From IMG/VR virus record IMGVR_UViG_3300026224_000013, positions 1-5,697 of that record: a stretch of DNA of 5,697 bases. One strand, written 5' to 3'. This DNA comes from a virus. Lineage: Duplodnaviria; Heunggongvirae; Uroviricota; Caudoviricetes. Below the pieces are notes generated by a model. The model did not search any database. It had not been told where the DNA came from and saw nothing but the letters and a program-made list of their open reading frames with translations. How positions within the stretch are numbered: the stretch's first letter is position 1; every line of letters starts with the position of its first letter. Below are positions 1 through 5,697 of this stretch, piece by piece. Both the position numbers and the translations under genes were made by a program.

Positions 1-171
1 TCTGAGACAACATCTGGCAAGGCTGGGACGGAAGTCACTGTCGTTCTCAAAATCGGTGGAGCTGCATGACAAAGTCATCGGGCATTATCTGAACATAAAA
101 CACTATCAATAAGTTGGAGTCATTACCCTGTTATTGATGATGATATTGACAATAAGATTTATGCCTATGCT

Positions 172-897
172 ATGAATAACGCGATATCGTTTTCAAAAGT
201 TATTAATAACGATATAAAGAATGATAAGCCAGTTGTACTTACCTCTCTTGCTGAGGTTCAGAATGATTTGTGGGCCTATTGTATTAAAGTCCAAAAGGGG
301 GCTGACGTCACTTATTCTTTCCGAAAAATCAGCAGGGGGAAAGTCACAACAAATGAACCACAAAATATGACTCAGCGCGTATTCGCTTTGTTTGATAAAA
401 CAGATAAAGAGTTAAGATCATTTGATGGCAGCGCAGTCAATTTTGATGACAAAATCGATTGTATTTATATAAAAGATCAATTTTATGTATTTCATAAGAA
501 AAGTTTTGAGGCTATTGTAGGCTTGGAGGTTGAGTTTACAGAAGCTGCACAAAAAACATTAAATACAATTAAAGAACTTGATCTTATTGAAGGTTTAGAT
601 GTTATTGAACAAGCTATTCTTCATAAGCCATCACTGAGAAAAATTCTCACTCATATCGCTGAGAAAGGTAACCATACGGCTCTGGAAAAGAATGATGTTC
701 AAGCTATGAATGATGTGTTAAAAATGTTTCAGAACGAAGAGTTTAAGACCAATGAGCATGGTAAATTAGTCATAGAAGATGAGAGGCAAGGAAGAAACTT
801 TCTCAAACTGTTAAATGATTATTATAAACAAGGCATGACTACAAAAAAATACTATGGTACGGATAGCGGAAATGTGATTAACCCTATTAAGGCGTAA
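172..897 (+). CDS. Hypothetical protein, 241 aa, AT-rich orphan ORF (candidate moron/accessory gene; function unknown)
   Basis: Uninterrupted ATG-initiated ORF of 726 nt. Composition is strikingly AT-rich (about 28-30% GC by eye) against roughly 50% GC in the phage genes downstream. Product is Lys/Asn/Asp/Glu-rich with no transmembrane segment and no catalytic motif I can recognise (no Walker A, no HxH/HExxH). No obvious Shine-Dalgarno sequence. Confidence 0.65.
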   Translation: MNNAISFSKVINNDIKNDKPVVLTSLAEVQNDLWAYCIKVQKGADVTYSFRKISRGKVTTNEPQNMTQRVFALFDKTDKELRSFDGSAVNFDDKIDCIYIKDQFYVFHKKSFEAIVGLEVEFTEAAQKTLNTIKELDLIEGLDVIEQAILHKPSLRKILTHIAEKGNHTALEKNDVQAMNDVLKMFQNEEFKTNEHGKLVIEDERQGRNFLKLLNDYYKQGMTTKKYYGTDSGNVINPIKA

Positions 898-1096
898 AGC
901 ATATACTATATCTGGAACTGAAATACCAGCCGCCATCAGAAAGAACTGATGGGGCTTACAAATAGTAAGTAAATATAAAATGTTAAGGTATTTTTCATGC
1001 AAAAATGAAAATCATTGGCACAAATTAGAAACTAAGTAAATTGCTAATACTAATAACTTATTATTCTACTTACTATTTGCATGGAGTTGTTGTGAA

Positions 1097-1130
1097 TTGC
1101 TGGAAAGGTGGGTAATGTTTTTGTAGAATC
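1097..1130 (+). promoter_or_regulatory. Candidate promoter of the hok/mok mRNA
   Basis: TGTAGAAT (TG plus TAGAAT -10 at 1124-1129) with a weak -35 (TGGAAA, 1101-1106). The predicted start region just downstream, GGCGGGTGCTTGAGGCTATCTGCCTC, resembles the 5' leader of plasmid R1 hok mRNA as I recall it. Confidence 0.4.
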
Positions 1131-1182
1131 ACGGCGGGTGCTTGAGGCTATCTGCCTCGGGCACGAACACCAAAGGCAGATA

Positions 1183-1256
1183 GAGAAAAGCCCCAGTTAA
1201 CATTACGCGTCCGGCAAGACGCTTAACATTAATCTGAGGCCAATTTCATGCTTTGC
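1183..1256 (-). ncRNA. sok: Candidate Sok-type antisense RNA (antitoxin of the hok module)
   Basis: Minus-strand promoter-like elements: -35 TTGCCT (complement of 1286-1291), 17-nt spacer, -10 TAACCT (complement of 1263-1268), placed antisense over the mok start and leader as in hok/sok of R1. The minus-strand transcript can form a stem (GGCCUCAG/CUGGGGC with one G-U) ending in a U-rich tract (cttttctct). Exact ends are approximate. Confidence 0.45.
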
Positions 1257-1460
1257 ACATGTAGGTTAGCCTCTTACGTGCCGAAAGGCAAGGAGAAGCA
1301 GGCTATGAAGCAGCAAAAGGCGATGTTAATCGCCCTGATCGTCATCTGTTTAACCGTCATTGTGACGGCACTGGTAACGAGGAAAGACCTCTGCGAGGTA
1401 CGAATCCGAACCGGGCAGACGGAGGTCGCTGTCTTCGTAGACTACGAATCTAGAGAGTAA
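1248..1460 (+). CDS. mok: Mok-like in-frame leader/regulatory ORF overlapping hok (70 aa)
   Basis: ATG at 1248 is in frame with hok and adds 19 N-terminal residues (MLCTCRLASYVPKGKEKQA). This resembles the in-frame MokC extension of chromosomal HokC as I recall it. Translation of this frame is inferred by analogy only. Confidence 0.45.
   Translation: MLCTCRLASYVPKGKEKQAMKQQKAMLIALIVICLTVIVTALVTRKDLCEVRIRTGQTEVAVFVDYESRE
1305..1460 (+). CDS. hok: Hok/Gef-family type I toxin (51 aa small membrane toxin)
   Basis: Translation MKQQKAMLIALIVICLTVIVTALVTRKDLCEVRIRTGQTEVAVFVDYESRE carries the hallmark Hok/Gef/RelF pattern: N-terminal TM helix, TRKxLCE motif, periplasmic tail ending YES. AGGAG-like RBS (aaggagaag) lies 8-16 nt upstream of the ATG. 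Confidence 0.88.
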   Translation: MKQQKAMLIALIVICLTVIVTALVTRKDLCEVRIRTGQTEVAVFVDYESRE

Positions 1461-1469
1461 GAGTGACCA

Positions 1470-1491
1470 GGCGGGAGAGTAATCTCCCGCC
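1470..1491 (+). promoter_or_regulatory. Perfect 9-bp stem-loop in the hok mRNA 3' UTR (candidate fold-back/processing element)
   Basis: GGCGGGAGA-gtaa-TCTCCCGCC is a perfect 9-bp stem with a GNRA-type tetraloop (GUAA), immediately after the hok stop. Hok mRNAs are known to carry 3' structural elements (fbi) that pair with the 5' end. Confidence 0.5.
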
Positions 1492-1530
1492 ACCTCTGAT
1501 GTGTCAGGCATCCTCAATGCACCCACACTT

Positions 1531-1562
1531 AACCCGCTTCGGCGGGTTTTTGTTTTTATTTT
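1531..1562 (+). terminator. Rho-independent terminator of the hok transcript
   Basis: AACCCGC-ttcg-GCGGGTT (7-bp stem, UUCG tetraloop) followed by TTTTGTTTTTATTTT. Confidence 0.75.
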
Positions 1563-1570
1563 CAACGCGT

Positions 1571-1600
1571 TTGAAGTTTTGGATAGTGCCGGAATAGAAT
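1571..1600 (+). promoter_or_regulatory. Candidate sigma70 promoter upstream of the small ORF/DUF1367/YbcO/Q-like gene block
   Basis: -35 TTGAAG (1571-1576), 18-nt spacer, -10 TAGAAT (1595-1600). Sequence-only prediction. Confidence 0.3.
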
Positions 1601-1682
1601 CAAAAATACTTAAGTAGCGCGCAGGGAGAAGAGGGATGGACCCCGAACAGGGGAGTGCTATTTATCTGGAAGGATTCTGAAG

Positions 1683-1856
1683 ATGAAAATCGAAGAATTG
1701 CGTGAAATTTTTAGTGAAGATGGCCTCTATGCTGTGCGCGTTGAGAATGGAGAAGTTATCTACACAACGTTAATTCCTGATGATCATGTGATTTTATCTA
1801 TCGAGGCATTCATTGAATACCTTGAAAGGCTCGGTTTCAAGGTGGTTCGCGAATGA
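1683..1856 (+). CDS. Small hypothetical protein (57 aa), acidic, not in the supplied ORF track
   Basis: ATG at 1683 with GGAAGGA upstream and stop at 1854-1856. Translation is MKIEELREIFSEDGLYAVRVENGEVIYTTLIPDDHVILSIEAFIEYLERLGFKVVRE. GC content and codon use match the downstream phage genes. No family assigned. Confidence 0.45.
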   Translation: MKIEELREIFSEDGLYAVRVENGEVIYTTLIPDDHVILSIEAFIEYLERLGFKVVRE

Positions 1857-1915
1857 GTTATAATTCGTAAGCCAGCCTGAACAACTGGCAACCTACAGCG
1901 CCATTGGAGACAGCA

Positions 1916-2515
1916 ATGGCGCATATACAACTGGTCAAACAAACCTCTTCCGGATTACTTCTCCCGGCGACGCCGGAGAGTTGTGATTTTCTGCATCAAA
2001 TCAAAATAGGCGAGTGGATACACGCTGATTTTAAGCGCGTTCGTAACTACGCATTCCATAAGCGTTTTTTCAAACTTCTGCAACTCGGATTCGATTACTG
2101 GACTCCGGTCGGTGGGGCGATCACACCTCGCGAACGAGAACTGCTGTCTGGTTTCGTGGATTACCTGTGCGAATCAGTTGGTCGGGAACACACACCAGCC
2201 CTGAGTGATGCCGCAGAGCAATATCTAAATACAGTTGCGATACGCAGAACCCGGGATACGGCATTGCTAAAGTCGTTTGAGGCTTTCCGCGAGTGGGTAA
2301 CCATTCAGGCCGGATTTTACACCGAGCATCTTTATCCTGATGGTAGCCGTGGGCGTCGGGCGAAATCTATCGCGTTTGCGAATATGGACGAAACCGTGTT
2401 TCAGCAGGTTTATAAATCTGTACTGAATGTGCTGTGGAACTGGATTCTGTTCCGTAAATTTTCCTCTCCGGAACAAGTCGAAAATGTGGCCGCGCAGCTG
2501 CTGGAGTTTGCGTAA
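1916..2515 (+). CDS. Lambdoid nin-region protein, DUF1367-like (199 aa from ATG 1916; the track ORF begins at TTG 1904)
   Basis: Long ORF with GGAGA RBS 5 nt upstream of ATG 1916. Its stop TAA (2513-2515) overlaps the ATG of the next gene. Family assignment is from memory of prophage genes that precede YbcO-like and Q genes, so it is tentative; the coding call itself is firmer. Confidence 0.7.
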   Translation: MAHIQLVKQTSSGLLLPATPESCDFLHQIKIGEWIHADFKRVRNYAFHKRFFKLLQLGFDYWTPVGGAITPRERELLSGFVDYLCESVGREHTPALSDAAEQYLNTVAIRRTRDTALLKSFEAFREWVTIQAGFYTEHLYPDGSRGRRAKSIAFANMDETVFQQVYKSVLNVLWNWILFRKFSSPEQVENVAAQLLEFA

Positions 2516-2805
2516 TGGTGGACTTACGTAAAGCGACGCGGGGGCAGATGTGCACCGTCAGAATTCCTGGCTACTGCAATCACGATCCGGAAACGTCTGT
2601 GCTGGCGCATTACCGACTGGCGGGAACGTGCGGAACAGCGATAAAGCCACACGATATGCAGGCAGCGATTGCCTGTAGCTCGTGCCACGATTTAATCGAC
2701 GGGCGGGTAAAAACCAGCGATTACACCAAAGAAGAATTACGCCTGATGCATGCAGAAGGTGTTTTTCGCACACAAGAAATCTGGAGAAAGGAGGGATATT
2801 TATGA
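2515..2805 (+). CDS. YbcO-like (DUF1364) Cys-rich putative nuclease of lambdoid prophages (96 aa)
   Basis: Translation MVDLRKATRGQMCTVRIPGYCNHDPETSVLAHYRL...IACSSCHDLIDGR has the size and conserved Cys/His spacing I associate with E. coli DLP12 YbcO. Start overlaps the upstream stop (TAATG) and the stop overlaps the downstream start (ATGA). Confidence 0.75.
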   Translation: MVDLRKATRGQMCTVRIPGYCNHDPETSVLAHYRLAGTCGTAIKPHDMQAAIACSSCHDLIDGRVKTSDYTKEELRLMHAEGVFRTQEIWRKEGYL

Positions 2806-3338
2806 TTTACCCAACGAATACAGGAAAAAGCGGAGAACACCTTCGTCTCACCACGCTGGAAAGTGTCTGGATTCAGGGAAAACTACGTATGTGGGGGCGC
2901 TGGTCGTATATTGGCGGCGGCAGGTCAGGGAATATGTTTAACCAGTTGCTGGCATCCCAAAAAATGACAAAAACAGCCATCAATGAAGCCCTGCGCAGAT
3001 TGAAAAAAGCGGGAATTGATAAACCAGAGTTGGAAGCATTTTTGCGTGAGATGATCGAAGGAAAGCAAAAAAGCTGGTTAACTCACTGCACTGATGCAGA
3101 GGCACTAAAAATTGATAGTGTTATAGGTGAAGTTCTGGCGGATCATCCAGGACTACTAAATGTCCTGAGTCAGCGTTATGTGGGGCGAGGGATGAGTAAG
3201 AGAAGGATGGCAGAGTTATTAAACGAACAGTACCCAGAGTGGGCGTTGATTACATGCCGACGTCGTGTTGAGCAGTGGTTGCGTGTTGCTGAGTTCATTT
3301 TGTATTCACCTATGAGAGAAGCGTTCGATTATGCTTAA
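2802..3338 (+). CDS. Putative late-gene antiterminator, Q-like (178 aa from ATG 2802)
   Basis: ATG 2802 has a strong AGGAGGG RBS and overlaps the YbcO-like stop. The gene is the last before a promoter/terminator pair, the tRNAs and the lysis genes, which is where Q sits in lambdoid phages. Family identity is inferred mainly from position and size, not a recognised motif. The longer track ORF from 2682 is rejected as a 5' extension. Confidence 0.55.
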   Translation: MIYPTNTGKSGEHLRLTTLESVWIQGKLRMWGRWSYIGGGRSGNMFNQLLASQKMTKTAINEALRRLKKAGIDKPELEAFLREMIEGKQKSWLTHCTDAEALKIDSVIGEVLADHPGLLNVLSQRYVGRGMSKRRMAELLNEQYPEWALITCRRRVEQWLRVAEFILYSPMREAFDYA

Positions 3339-3345
3339 AAAATCA

Positions 3346-3374
3346 TTGCAAAATGAGCCACAAACTGCTTCAAT
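3346..3374 (+). promoter_or_regulatory. Candidate late promoter (pR'-like) immediately downstream of the Q-like gene
   Basis: -35 TTGCAA (3346-3351), 17-nt spacer, -10 TTCAAT (3369-3374), about 60 nt upstream of a strong intrinsic terminator. This matches the pR'-to-tR' short-transcript layout of lambdoid phages. Weak consensus match. Confidence 0.25.
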
Positions 3375-3434
3375 TTTGGTACGCTTCGCAAAGCTGTATC
3401 GCGAGGCGAATCAAGCGCAATTGAACTTTAATAG

Positions 3435-3462
3435 AACCCGCCATCGAGCGGGTTTTGTTGTT
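3435..3462 (+). terminator. Rho-independent terminator (candidate tR')
   Basis: AACCCGC-catcga-GCGGGTT (7-bp stem) followed by TTGTTGTTTCTG U-rich tract. Confidence 0.55.
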
Positions 3463-3595
3463 TCTGCGGTGTTATATAAGAAACGACATTTAATAATCTC
3501 CTTCAAAATAAATTTGTTTATATATTGTCATGTATATTTTAAGTGAAAGTGAAATATTCACATAAAATAAAAACATATAAATAAATTTACATAAC

Positions 3596-3624
3596 TTGAC
3601 GCAAAGTGTTGTTGCGATTGGAAT
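3596..3624 (+). promoter_or_regulatory. Candidate promoter with AT-rich UP-like region upstream of the tRNA genes (alternative pR' candidate)
   Basis: -35 TTGACG (3596-3601), 17-nt spacer, -10 TGGAAT (3619-3624), preceded by about 130 bp of extremely AT-rich DNA (3470-3595) and about 75 nt upstream of the first tRNA. Confidence 0.3.
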
Positions 3625-3702
3625 ATTAAATCGTATCATCGAAAACGGTTCTGAGGGGGAACTCTTCTTTGCTCGGTGATATCGCTCCCCTGAAGAACCA
3701 AT

Positions 3703-3778
<76 letters not shown>

Positions 3779-3781
3779 TAT

Positions 3782-3856
<75 letters not shown>

Positions 3857-4156
3857 GAGAAACAAGCCTTATTGTATTGCGGCACTGGCGTATTTTTTAT
3901 TACGTGGGAGCAGGTTGTATTGAAAAAGCATTCTGTTCTCTGGCTATGATTTGAGGCCGGGTGTAGCCTCAGTGCTGATTTTTTACGGCAGCAGAATGGT
4001 GCATTATCGGTGGAGATTTTGTATTTCCTGGCAGGGTCGGTGATGCATCATTCTGGTGTTGTAAAAGCACCACAGAGGCGTTCCTCAGTGCGAGGGTGGT
4101 TTAAAGAGTCGGTTTAGCGGGAAACCACAGTATCCATACAGAACGGAATACTTCGG

Positions 4157-4182
4157 GAGGCACCCGACGCCTCGATTTTATT
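4157..4182 (+). terminator. Terminator-like hairpin with U-tract inside the non-coding block
   Basis: GAGGC-acccgac-GCCTC (5-bp stem) followed by GATTTTATT. Confidence 0.4.
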
Positions 4183-4212
4183 ACAATTAAAAATTCATCC
4201 CTTGCATTGACC

Positions 4213-4241
4213 AACCGCCTCCACCAGGCGGTTTTTTTTAT
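4213..4241 (+). terminator. Strong rho-independent terminator inside the non-coding block
   Basis: AACCGCCT-ccacc-AGGCGGTT (8-bp GC-rich stem) followed by TTTTTTATT. Confidence 0.7.
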
Positions 4242-4421
4242 TCTGAATTCAGTTTCTTCATGGCTCGCTACGGCGGGCCTTTTTCATATCCGCGCCACGC
4301 CCGGCGCACATCAAAAACCACAGAGCCTTTCAGGGGTGAGCTTACGGGATGGTCAGTGTGACTTTCTCTGTGGGCTGGTCACCCCCGGGCGGAGGCTCAC
4401 CCACTAAAAGGAAAAGTCACG

Positions 4422-4847
4422 ATGTTTGGTATTTTCAAAAAGAAAACCCGCAAGGCCATTACCGAAGTGAAGAAGATGGAGAACCGCGACGCAGTGGAGG
4501 CGACCGTCTGGGGTGCGTATTCCATTGCATACGCTGACGGCACCTGCGACGCGAAAGAAATCGCAGTACTGGAGAAAACCATTGCAGCACTTCCTGCCTT
4601 TGCACCGTTCTCCGGCGAGATTGCACAAATGAGTGCAAATATCCGCGCCCGTTATGAAGCGTCGCCGCGCTCTGCTAATGCTGAAGCCCTTCGCCAGCTG
4701 GCTGATGTTGCCGGTACTGATGACGCAGTTAATGTGCTGTGCCTGTGTCTGGATATCGCTGACCAGGATGGCATTGGTCCGGATGAAGAAGCACAGCTCA
4801 AGAAAATTGCTCAGGCGCTTCAGCTACCGCTGGAGCAGTACCTGTGA
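4422..4847 (+). CDS. TerB-like (tellurite-resistance TerB domain-like) protein, 141 aa
   Basis: ATG 4422 with AAAGGAAAAG upstream. Soluble, acidic, mostly helical-looking sequence with paired Asp-rich segments (AYADGTCDAKEIAVLEKTIAA... and ...LCLCLDIADQDGIGPDEEAQLKKIAQAL) as in TerB-fold proteins. The family call is from pattern memory, not a search. Confidence 0.65.
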   Translation: MFGIFKKKTRKAITEVKKMENRDAVEATVWGAYSIAYADGTCDAKEIAVLEKTIAALPAFAPFSGEIAQMSANIRARYEASPRSANAEALRQLADVAGTDDAVNVLCLCLDIADQDGIGPDEEAQLKKIAQALQLPLEQYL

Positions 4848-4996
4848 AAAGTGCGCGTCTTGTACTGGCTGCCATCCTGCTGTTTCTGGTAGTGGCGGTG
4901 GATTTCACCGGACGCCTGATGTCAGTGCTTGCCGATGGCGTGCTGGTGGCGATGGCGCTGGTCGTGCTCCGGCCTTTACTGCGTAAATCTGAATAA
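4844..4996 (+). CDS. Putative small membrane protein (50 aa, GTG start overlapping the upstream stop), not in the ORF track
   Basis: GTG 4844-4846 overlaps the TGA 4845-4847 of the TerB-like gene (GTGA). Translation VKSARLVLAAILLFLVVAVDFTGRLMSVLADGVLVAMALVVLRPLLRKSE has two hydrophobic stretches and a basic C-terminus. An internal ATG (about 4907-4909, same frame) would give only 29 aa. Confidence 0.35.
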   Translation: MKSARLVLAAILLFLVVAVDFTGRLMSVLADGVLVAMALVVLRPLLRKSE

Positions 4997-5043
4997 CACC
5001 ACACAAAAGGCATCTGCGGGTGCCTTTGATGGGGTGTTTTTAT

Positions 5044-5069
5044 GGGCCGTTGGTGGCCCTTTTTTATTT
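5044..5069 (+). terminator. Hairpin with U-tract upstream of the holin gene (terminator-like or regulatory)
   Basis: GGGCC-gttggt-GGCCC followed by TTTTTTTATTT. A weaker hairpin AAAGGCA-tctgcggg-TGCCTTT (5006-5027) lies just before it. Confidence 0.4.
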
Positions 5070-5083
5070 ACAGGAGAAAAAGT

Positions 5084-5449
5084 ATGTCTGAACCCTTATC
5101 CGGTTCCGGCACGGCTGCGGCGCTCGGCGGGGCGACGGTATTCGGGCTGTTTACCGGAACGGATTTCGGGATTGTGTTTGGTGCGTTCGCCGGGGCGTTG
5201 TTTGTGGCAACGATGCCGCAGAAGATTTCAGCCTGGCGTGTGGCGGCACATTTTCTGGTGTCGTTCATTGTTGGTGTACTGGGGGCGCGTGTACTGTCAG
5301 CCTGGATTGCATCAAAAACAGGTTATGACGGTACATCTGCGGAGGCACTGTGTGCGGTGCTGGTGGCGGTGGGGCTTAATCTGCTGTTCTGCGTGCTGGT
5401 GATACGTGCACGCGGGAACGTTTCAAAAATCCTTTCATTCCGGAGGTGA
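5084..5449 (+). CDS. Putative holin (121 aa, multi-TM, Gly/Ala-rich)
   Basis: ATG 5084 with AGGAG RBS (5072-5076). Three to four hydrophobic segments and a charged C-terminus (RARGNVSKILSFRR). Stop TGA 5447-5449 lies 2 nt before the endolysin ATG. The track ORF start at 5042 sits inside the upstream hairpin and is rejected. Confidence 0.6.
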   Translation: MSEPLSGSGTAAALGGATVFGLFTGTDFGIVFGAFAGALFVATMPQKISAWRVAAHFLVSFIVGVLGARVLSAWIASKTGYDGTSAEALCAVLVAVGLNLLFCVLVIRARGNVSKILSFRR

Positions 5450-5451
5450 GC

Positions 5452-5697
5452 ATGTCGGGTAAATTCAGATTCAGTCGTCGCAGTGAAAAAAATCTGGAGG
5501 GCGTCAAACCACAGCTGGTTGCTGTCGTTCGCCGTGCCCTTGAGCTGACGGAGGTTGATTTCGGTATTACGGAAGGGCTGCGCACGAAAGAACGCCAGAA
5601 ACAGCTGGTCGCGGAAGGGAAAAGCCAGACCATGAACAGCCGCCACCTGACCGGTGATGCTGTGGATGTTGTGGCTTATGTTGGCAGCCAGGTGTCA
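5452..5697 (+). CDS. Endolysin, peptidase M15 family (L-alanyl-D-glutamate peptidase / VanY-like), 5' partial (82 codons, runs off the window)
   Basis: Translation MSGKFRFSRRSEKNLEGVKPQLVAVVRRALELTEVDFGITEGLRTKERQKQLVAEGKSQTMNSRHLTGDAVDVVAYV... contains the SxHxxGxAxD zinc-binding signature (SRHLTGDAVD) typical of M15 peptidases. GGAGG RBS upstream. Confidence 0.8.
   Translation, partial: MSGKFRFSRRSEKNLEGVKPQLVAVVRRALELTEVDFGITEGLRTKERQKQLVAEGKSQTMNSRHLTGDAVDVVAYVGSQVS

Follow-up and report, generated by a model that had tools for sequence, protein, structure and literature searches.

STnc100 (Rfam family RF02076) is a prophage-borne small RNA (sRNA) of Salmonella and Escherichia coli, with 11 copies in strain EDL933, where copies are expressed as separate RNAs of some 160-210 nucleotides (nt) seen by RNA sequencing, one of them also by Northern blot (PMC5331693). 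One copy, located 75 nt downstream of stx2B, has an overlap with the Hfq-bound EcOnc27 / sRNA103 (PMC12370729, PMC12711010, PMC4104026), and STnc100, together with the antisense anti-sRNAs AsxR and AgvB, makes up the 'convergent sRNA pairs' of the pR' moron site (Tree et al. 2014, PMC4104026). An RpoD signal at the promoters of STnc100 has been obtained in Salmonella LT2 by chromatin immunoprecipitation with exonuclease treatment (ChIP-exo; PMC10794520). PasD is likewise Hfq-dependent, with targets known from the ligation and sequencing of interacting RNAs (RIL-seq; PMC8550237); its 5' end, placed by RNA sequencing and Northern blot, is where its closing stem begins (PMC8550237 Table S6), its seed lies in the segment equivalent to the linker described below (PMC8550237 fig. 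S5 text), and a preprint gives PasD and STnc100 a common ancestor (bioRxiv 10.64898/2026.05.13.724894). This report assesses a candidate relative of these RNAs in a stretch of 5,697 nt (the window; positions 1 to 5,697 of the IMG/VR virus record IMGVR_UViG_3300026224_000013, Caudoviricetes), which represents the late-regulatory region of an Escherichia prophage of lambdoid type. Within the window, a block of 565 base pairs (bp) without annotation (3857-4421) lies between a pair of transfer RNA (tRNA) genes and the TerB/lysis genes, and positions 3975-4243 of that block, here named F1, are read, with a probability of roughly 0.7, as a plus-strand gene for a structured sRNA that belongs to a divergent sister subfamily of STnc100, with PasD (EcOnc13) also related.

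BLAST searches of 5426 complete E. coli genomes, phages and plasmids split the block, which matches E. coli A36 (NZ_CP028739, 3331051-3331618) at 98.6 % identity over the block, into three modules with different evolutionary histories; E. coli W is another strain in which the F1 module has a near relative. Positions 3857-4243 travel together, their matches ending exactly at the terminator at 4213-4241, and within them the conservation of 3975-4243 is far above that of the tRNA trailer at 3857-3974; positions 4255-4421 travel with the TerB gene. The original prediction, made from the letters of the window, had treated the interval as one hairpin-rich unit of about 560 bp, a view that gives way here, the last ~170 bp being a different and far more widespread TerB-leader module. 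Its description of the block as dense in structure is borne out, the plus strand of 3857-4421 folding at -213.6 kcal/mol against -174.2±6.6 in shuffles (z -6.0, 0/100), compared with z -1.9 on the minus strand, and the core 3975-4243 alone giving z -5.9 on the plus strand. Terminator-like sites in the block number four (4157-4173, 4213-4233, 4262-4279 and 3951-3972) versus 1.8±1.2 expected in shuffles. The absence of a credible open reading frame (ORF), also claimed there, stands as well: the longest ORFs of the block encode only 30-66 amino acids (aa), none of the eight of these that were tested has a Pfam match at E<=1 (the frame-shifted ORF 4349-4537, which runs into TerB, was left out), and 1-nt insertions or deletions (indels) separate homologues inside the most conserved stretch, the reading frame differing among copies. 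A coding block was rejected on these grounds.

F1 is a non-coding, terminator-ended RNA module of conserved fold at the STnc100 position. Together with the trailer that precedes it, it has the following parts.

3857-3974, plus strand: 3' trailer or spacer of tRNA-Gly, the most variable part of the module, holding a hairpin at 3951-3972
3970-3978, plus strand: conserved box CAGTGCTGA, leading into a T-run at 3979-3984
3979-4067, plus strand: P1, a long imperfect hairpin of ~90 nt, pairs 3982-4009:4038-4065, apex 4010-4037 (RNAalifold)
4062-4067, plus strand: putative -10-like TAAAAG, 7 nt upstream of the P2 closing stem
4075-4080:4168-4173, plus strand: closing stem of P2, the five-helix domain 4075-4173 (RNAalifold and covariation)
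4083-4086:4092-4095, plus strand: helix P2a, with loop AGUGC
4096-4102:4122-4128, plus strand: helix P2b (RNAalifold)
4129-4135:4146-4152, plus strand: helix P2c (RNAalifold and covariation)
4153-4157:4163-4167, plus strand: helix P2d, with loop AGGCA
4174-4212, plus strand: AU-rich single-stranded linker, unpaired in the consensus and the most variable part of the core
4213-4241, plus strand: Rho-independent terminator of the sRNA, an 8-bp stem AACCGCCT/AGGCGGTT followed by T8

The fold rests on a consensus computed with RNAalifold from 21 distinct aligned sequences, homologues having been drawn from two deposited records of phages (L002, which carries two copies, and L003), chromosomes of E. 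coli, plasmids, E. ruysiae (L008) and 52 IMG/VR contigs. In this consensus, 97.8 % of cells are paired. Run as the original prediction had proposed, the covariation test found 13 pairs with compensatory changes, where column shuffles gave 6.7±1.7 (0/500) and slid controls 2-4, the covariation being carried by P1, the closing stem and P2c. Specifically, 7 of the 23 pairs of P1 show compensatory changes, with 96.5 % of cells paired; the closing stem covaries through a CG<->UA exchange in 10/21 sequences plus two further pairs; and P2c does so at 3 pairs. Across the 21 sequences, P2a and P2d do not change at all, compensatory change in P2d appearing in distant copies (UAGGG/CCCUA in L298, UCGGA/UCCGA in L182). 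The alignment columns that cover the CAGTGCT box and T-run (5-19) are nearly invariant. Homologues down to 71 % identity retain pairing via compensatory changes. The structured molecule is the plus-strand RNA, since G:U pairs, which make up 10 % of the cells, would be lost on the other strand, where pairing would fall to 87.5 %; the G:U pairs of P1 (93/503 cells, 18 %) fit a plus-strand RNA as well.

Several elements named in the original prediction find their place in this fold. The 12/13-matched inverted repeat at 3992-4004/4043-4055 forms the middle of a longer inverted repeat, whose arms (3981-4009/4038-4066, 79 % complementary) measure 29 nt, and the stem GTGGTTT/AAACCAC, placed at about 4095-4130, lies at 4096-4102/4122-4128. 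Of the two consecutive terminator-like elements, 4213-4241 occurs in every homologue, plasmid copies included, with a loop that varies in sequence. The other, 4157-4182, is not conserved as a hairpin: its GAGGC/GCCTC pairing shows 0 compensatory changes and has a C:G pair broken in 10/21 homologues, and its 3' half covaries with 4075-4080 instead. The suggested transcript end at 4182 is accordingly not supported, this element being the 3' side of the five-helix domain and no terminator. A conserved GC-rich hairpin with a U-run is found at 4213-4241 and at 4262-4284. The underlying idea of an sRNA locus fares well, positions up to the 4213-4241 terminator making a strong candidate sRNA gene at the Q-to-lysis moron site.

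A direct repeat, CCTCAGTGC, occurs at 3967-3975 and 4083-4091, on either side of P1. Its upstream copy and the GAGGC at 3952-3956 together look like the beginning of the P2 domain (GAGGCGTTCCTCAGTGCG), pointing either to a duplication of part of the element or to the arrival of P1 in an older one.

Kinship with STnc100 emerges from profile searches in both directions. The Rfam search, another check that the original prediction had proposed, found no above-threshold match in the block; its sole meaningful sub-threshold match was to STnc100, end to end over 4048-4243, at 20.0 bits against a gathering score of 47 bits. F1 relatives score 21.7-39.2 bits with the STnc100 model, the plasmid relatives found by BLAST reaching 39.2 and 33.9 bits (E 4e-5 and 1e-3; 53-kb search), and true STnc100 loci score 60-162 bits. 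Conversely, a P2 covariance model built from F1 sequences alone finds genuine STnc100 loci over its full length at 20-41 bits, part of that score arising by construction, for the pattern by which these loci had been selected has a 13-mer in common with F1. In L181, a locus chosen on other grounds, the same model detects an STnc100-type element at 30.8 bits (E 6e-7). According to the model-to-sequence alignments, all five helices re-form in STnc100 from different sequences, including the closing stem (CAUGGUG/CACCAUG in STnc100 vs GAGGCG/CGCCUC in F1), P2b (GCGAUC/GAUCGC-type vs GUGGUUU/AAACCAC) and P2c (GGAUUCAG/CUGAAUUC vs AGUAUCC/GGAAUACU). That differing helices, three of the five being wholly different in sequence, rebuild the same five-way junction and two loops suggests that the family needs the fold for its function, and not a seed alone.

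The two families also share an architecture and a niche. Both have the five-helix domain, with a closing stem, P2a and its GUGCG loop, two hairpins that vary and one, CGGGAGGCACCCG, that is invariant, then an AU-rich linker and an intrinsic terminator, and both reside in the late region of lambdoid prophages, downstream of Q on the late-gene strand, often directly after a tRNA array. Each carries a hairpin between the T-run of the tRNA terminator and the domain; that of STnc100 is shorter and is given by folding only, without a covariation test. They differ in that the domain lies ~235 nt from the tRNA in F1 and ~122 nt in STnc100, the ~110-nt difference being largely P1, whose size is specific to the F1 subfamily, and in that the F1 tRNA is Gly(UCC) after Thr(UGU), whereas that of STnc100 is Arg. 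As with the convergent sRNA pairs, F1 occupies the pR' moron niche, in which an sRNA accompanies or replaces cargo between Q/pR' and the lysis genes. Unlike in those pairs, only the sense partner is found here: the anti-sRNA class (51-60 nt, AgvB/AsxR) is absent at the F1 3' end, with no Rfam match to it in the window, and the 4213-4241 terminator has no U-run on the minus strand.

Among the STnc100 loci examined, AgvB and AsxR (Rfam, at or above the gathering score) abut STnc100 3' ends on the opposite strand in L100 (2647-2901) and L119 (8-242), as convergent pairs with a common terminator region. Additionally, the P2 model finds tandem arrays of 4-5 STnc100-like domains per viral contig in L090 (4378-5459, 8430-8517) and L065 (2324-3352).

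The comparison with PasD is informative in a different way. PasD1 and PasD2 (EcOnc13 of enterohaemorrhagic E. coli, EHEC; 172-173 nt) resemble F1 in their prophage late-region setting and, if the F1 RNA starts at the closing stem, in size. Both have sub-threshold matches to the STnc100 model, PasD2 and PasD1 of enteropathogenic E. coli E2348/69, fetched by their coordinates in PMC8550237 Table S6, scoring 41.4 and 37.7 bits, a range like that of the plasmid relatives. By analogy, F1 would share with PasD a 5' end on the closing stem and a seed in the AU/U-rich linker before the terminator, and the linker of L021-type F1 copies, TCCTTTTATCGTTTT, matches PasD TCCTTTTATCATTTT at 14/15 positions. 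The PasD seed itself (CCUUGUGAG; UGUGAG) is absent from the window linker at 4174-4212. The neighbourhoods differ, PasD following a DUF3927 gene and preceding an esterase gene, whereas F1 stands before TerB-DUF3927. Identity of the element with PasA, PasC or PasD was rejected, given a null blastn result and the position of PasA and PasC, antisense after the esterase gene, a gene that the window lacks. The original prediction had likened the locus to prophage sRNAs that bind Hfq in pathogenic E. coli, and the kinship with STnc100, EcOnc27 and PasD agrees with that.

Besides the shared 13-mer already mentioned, several observations weigh against reading F1 as an sRNA of this superfamily. The 20.0 bits of the window fall short of STnc100 membership, and no tested F1 member, L009, L021, L038 and L059 included, reaches the gathering score. 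With PasD, blastn at word size 7 gives chance-level matches only between the window and PasA/PasD, and the P2 model does not find PasD (L006, L007). The putative -10 TAAAAG is weak, with no T at -7, is replaced in L009/L021 variants and has no convincing -35. Pairing of the linker with ten start regions of the window, computed with RNAduplex, was no better than that of shuffled linkers, and we infer expression, 5' end, Hfq binding and targets of F1 from analogy with its relatives. Finally, L182, L294 and L298 have altered 'invariant' loops or deletions and may be decaying. Because F1 lies below the Rfam gathering score and the P2 model misses PasD, F1 appears to be a sister subfamily within the STnc100/PasD superfamily and not a curated STnc100 member. 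It is an already known kind of element, in a newly recognised divergent subfamily. It escapes the Rfam STnc100 model, a gap that a model made from the present alignment would close; the superfamily would then also take in prophages outside EHEC, including carriers of subtilase and LT-II toxins.

As to the divergent copies, L182 (2349-2455) and L294 (1303-1397) show the loop changes AGGCA->AGAUA and AGUGC->GAUGC, or a 13-nt deletion in P2b, and are either decaying or members of a further subfamily. In L294, a RefSeq coding sequence for a 137-aa hypothetical protein (locus 1271-1684) is annotated over the F1 element.

The features that flank the block are as follows.

1136-1310: hok/sok locus (Rfam sok, 113 bits)
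ending at 3338: Q-type antiterminator gene
3703-3778 and 3782-3856, plus strand: tRNA-Thr(UGU) and tRNA-Gly(UCC) (ARAGORN; Rfam tRNA 73.8 and 65.6 bits)
4422-4847: TerB-family gene, followed by a DUF3927 gene, two holin genes and an M15 endolysin gene

F1 is carried by 434/5426 E. coli genomes and 143 plasmids, and it is also found in two deposited phage records and in E. ruysiae, so that ~8 % of complete E. coli genomes and >100 virulence or conjugative plasmids carry it without annotation. Among one-genome-per-species representatives, only E. ruysiae matched the F1 pattern, in a scan that required exact invariant motifs and would miss more divergent relatives in other genera. The plasmid homologues are 71-77 % identical, and 129 of the 143 are on conjugative plasmids, mostly IncF, in cargo regions or regions rich in insertion sequences (IS) and not among leading-region genes. 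In pLD39-1-134kb (L004, 6001-6195), for example, the homologue adjoins the AIDA-I adhesin operon, and in pVir68 (L005, 5534-5749) it lies just upstream of a DMT transporter gene, still preceded by a tRNA remnant (5349-5422; Rfam tRNA 37 bits). Where enough upstream sequence was present, 40 of 46 F1 elements have a same-strand tRNA (Gly in 36, Arg in 4) ending 231-239 nt before the P2a motif. Between the end of the tRNA and the point where the BLAST match begins, the spacer has a constant length of 113-114 nt; the trailer 3857-3974 is divergent in SerU copy 2 and in the plasmid copies, with the CAGTGCT box and T-run kept.

Downstream of F1, the genes vary, comprising TerB, holin, subtilase toxin, DMT transporter or an IS element. 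F1 is a discrete module that recombines as a unit; and because TerB, holins or subtilase AB5 follow it in different prophages, it is an independent module and the site a cargo site. This last was part of the original prediction and is upheld by subtilase AB5 in L298, LT-IIb in L002 and Stx2 in the literature (PMC4104026, PMC12370729). In L002, LT-IIb lies further downstream, beyond the lysis genes. The proposed comparison with related prophages produced a conserved module and no degraded known gene, with neither a Pfam nor a tRNA match. Since the TerB-leader module directly follows the tRNA array in EHEC-type prophages, with no sRNA or anything else between, the window is a mosaic in which tRNAs are followed by an inserted RNA module and then by the usual tRNA-terminator/TerB-leader module.

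In E. coli SA53-3 (L298, 1201-1917), the subtilase AB5 genes, B subunit first and then the S8 peptidase, stand directly downstream of a degraded F1 copy, which itself follows tRNA-Thr/tRNA-Gly.

Following the analogy with PasD, the mature F1 RNA would be ~167 nt long and would begin at ~4074/4075, at or near the closing stem of P2. Its source would be either transcription from the weak -10-like TAAAAG, which falls within the 3' arm of P1, or read-through of the tRNA operon that is then processed. An A-rich -10-like box is found 6-8 nt upstream of the closing stem in PasD and STnc100 (TTAAAA / TGTTAAAAG) and in F1 (TAAAAG); a second weak promoter candidate, TGnT(A/G)ATTT, stands just before P1, and sequence alone cannot choose between it and TAAAAG. 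P1 lies upstream of the presumed start, yet is clearly selected as an RNA hairpin; with the box weak as well, at least some of the RNA therefore probably derives from transcription begun further upstream, either at the tRNA promoter candidate (3612-3639) or at pR'. P1 would thus be part either of a precursor or longer isoform or of a tRNA-operon read-through transcript, and its 29-bp imperfect duplex would make a plausible RNase III-type processing site.

Downstream of P1, the AU-rich linker and the U-tail of the terminator would bind Hfq and present a variable seed to host or phage messenger RNAs, as the RIL-seq data for PasD and the Hfq cross-linking of EcOnc27 lead one to expect, and the five-helix P2 domain would confer stability or bind a protein. 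The P2 loops and junction stay invariant from F1 to STnc100, which suggests that the domain has a role beyond that of a scaffold for the seed, be it stability, a protein partner or a tertiary contact. In lambdoid phages, polymerase modified by Q passes terminators. During lysogeny, the terminators at 4213-4241 and 4262-4284 would stop constitutive tRNA/sRNA transcription before the TerB and holin-endolysin genes, and in lytic growth Q-modified polymerase from pR' would read through both.

The alternative that survives best concerns biogenesis only and otherwise overlaps with the sRNA reading: the RNA would be the 3' external transcribed spacer (3'ETS) of the tRNA-Thr/tRNA-Gly operon, cut from a single transcript that runs from the tRNA promoter (or pR') to 4241, with RNase P/E acting at the tRNAs and RNase III in P1. 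Its model would be 3'ETS-leuZ, which Lalaouna and colleagues reportedly described in 2015 as an sRNA sponge that is cleaved out of a tRNA operon's own 3'ETS. Like F1, that RNA comes after the last tRNA, ends at a Rho-independent terminator and is plausibly released by processing; but it is ~50 nt long, abuts the tRNA and lacks a complex fold, whereas F1 begins 118 nt from the tRNA, measures 170-265 nt and may have its own promoter. The fixed distance of the same-strand tRNA in the 40 linked elements, which survives as the tRNA remnant of pVir68, speaks for such an origin, as do P1, whose covariation and many G:U pairs mean that it must be transcribed although it precedes the PasD-equivalent 5' end, and the -10-like box, weak and not universally conserved. 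Furthermore, there is no canonical terminator between tRNA-Gly and P1, the hairpin at 3951-3972 being 6 nt from its T-run. Against it stand the recognisable promoters of PasD and STnc100 at the equivalent place and the PasD 5' end at the closing stem, and also the RpoD ChIP-exo signal at STnc100 promoters in Salmonella LT2 (PMC10794520). Moreover, of the 114 STnc100 elements whose upstream sequence was long enough, only 30 have a tRNA on the same strand no more than 400 nt away (tRNA-Arg, at ~122 nt), which shows that the family needs no tRNA operon. An exclusively operon-derived RNA is, on balance, possible but somewhat doubtful. The fixed tRNA linkage and the covarying P1 make own promoter versus tRNA-operon processing a testable hypothesis.

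An unlikely alternative is that the block acts in cis alone, as a transcriptional insulator or attenuator that shields the TerB-holin-endolysin genes from tRNA and other lysogenic transcription until Q is made, with no trans-acting RNA. The four terminator-like sites in 565 bp, where 1.8 are expected, would fit such a function, as would the position between constitutively useful tRNAs and lethal lysis genes and a TerB leader that would also occlude its own ribosome-binding site. A terminator alone would suffice for this, however, and the 100-nt five-helix domain, with loops that are invariant and stems that covary from phages to plasmids, is left unexplained; F1 also precedes unrelated downstream genes, and EHEC-type prophages make do with a single 4262-type hairpin between tRNAs and TerB.

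It is quite improbable that the P2 domain is itself the functional RNA, in one version a cloverleaf-like element born beside phage tRNAs that would act on a protein of the host or the phage as its decoy or ligand, the protein being, for instance, a defence nuclease aimed at tRNAs or a modification enzyme, with release by tRNA processing and a linker of secondary importance. The AGUGC and AGGCA loops could then form a loop-loop contact of 3-4 bp (GUGC:GCAC), which is partly maintained in the divergent copies L182 and L298. P2 resembles a class II cloverleaf in topology only, having a five-way junction and a 2-nt linker after the closing stem, and its loops are of 5 nt and are not T- or D-loops. 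A tRNA pseudogene or tRNA-like element was rejected, for 3940-4260 has no tRNA match at E<=10 and ARAGORN finds none there.

The original prediction had offered, as its other option, the remnant of a lost moron, and the corresponding explanation, decayed cargo or extra tRNA genes conserved as a young hitch-hiker, is very improbable. The site is indeed a known moron insertion point (PMC4104026), some copies are degraded (L182, L294, L298) and the CCTCAGTGC repeat hints at a past duplication. Yet protein similarity is lacking, with no Pfam match for the tested ORFs; STnc100 is the only Rfam match in 3940-4260 at E<=10, and ARAGORN finds only the two flanking tRNAs; the most conserved stretch lies in different frames among copies; and pairing is kept by compensatory changes down to 71 % identity, which neutral decay does not give, covariation and conservation instead fitting a functional RNA. 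That the palindromes act as DNA, as operator sites for a phage regulator or single-strand initiation/promoter hairpins, is likewise very improbable: the 143 plasmid copies, 129 of them on conjugative plasmids, and several perfect GC palindromes upstream of TerB would suit it, but the plasmid copies lie in cargo or IS-rich regions (AIDA-I, DMT transporter) and not in the leading region, many G:U pairs work on the plus strand only, the fold z-score is strand-asymmetric and every F1 copy has its own terminator; a single-stranded DNA promoter or single-strand initiation site of a plasmid leading region was rejected in view of the plasmid contexts and the strand-specific G:U pairing.

The remaining module of the block, at 4255-4421, is found in 1387/5426 E. 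coli genomes versus 434 for the F1 core, and its TerB leader, in a quarter of E. coli genomes, is a second unannotated candidate for a regulatory RNA. It holds the following features.

4262-4284, plus strand: second terminator, hairpin GGCTCGC-TACG-GCGGGCC (4262-4279) with T5
4292-4307, plus strand: small GC hairpin GCGCC-ACGCCC-GGCGC, pairs almost invariant in 60 sequences
4308-4425, plus strand: TerB leader, a long irregular hairpin (RNAalifold)

Hairpins of the 4262 type come directly after tRNA-Ile-Arg-Arg in L184, L185 and L187, and after the tRNA array, upstream of STnc100, in L068. The GC-rich palindromes that the original prediction saw before the TerB start are present, at 4292-4307, 4318-4325/4366-4373 and 4334-4346/4390-4402; the near-invariance of the first leaves covariation neither for nor against it. 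The palindrome GGGTGAGC...GCTCACCC is one helix of the TerB-leader hairpin, and CCACAGAG/CTCTGTGG is a competing pairing, also invariant. Within the predicted long hairpin, the anti-Shine-Dalgarno CCUUU (4326-4330) pairs with the Shine-Dalgarno AAAGG (4407-4411), a pairing that is invariant, and 4308-4312 pairs with the AUG region at 4421-4425. RNAalifold found 8 compensatory pairs in 8 diverse sequences, and the structure so obtained, when imposed on 60 distinct sequences, has 96.1 % paired and 6 compensatory pairs vs 0-4 in slid controls. Support for the hairpin is moderate, because an unconstrained fold of the 60 sequences differs and has no compensatory pair. The leader is not coding, since indels of 2, 3 and 5 nt occur among relatives. 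By occluding the ribosome-binding site, the hairpin would ensure that read-through alone gives little translation of TerB.

At 4333-4336, GGGG-T-G in the window corresponds to a homopolymer of 6-12 G in relatives (L189, L190-L195, L072, L137), the overall range being 4-12 G; variation in G-tract length of this kind is typical of slipped-strand phase-variable tracts, and the tract lies within the helix that would occlude the TerB ribosome-binding site. A likeness of 4333-4402 to primer motifs of enterobacterial repetitive intergenic consensus (ERIC) repeats was set aside, the region being a conserved TerB leader at a fixed position.

Elsewhere in the window, hok/sok is a complete type I toxin-antitoxin locus (1136-1460), the Hok ORF lying within 1248-1460 and reading MKQQKAMLIAL... 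from 1305. Downstream of Q, a terminator-like hairpin with a T-run at ~3437-3461, with a weak Trp_leader-type Rfam match at 3371-3461 (E 0.5), is a candidate for a pR'/tR' short RNA. A very AT-rich stretch comes next, followed by the sigma-70-like TTGCGA-16-TATCAT at 3612-3639, itself a candidate tRNA promoter. Positions 4997-5083, which separate DUF3927 from the holin gene, hold two hairpins in succession, each with a T-run, and because the same segment also precedes the holin gene in SerU-LTIIb and vB_EcoS-683R6, it is a conserved holin leader or terminator module.

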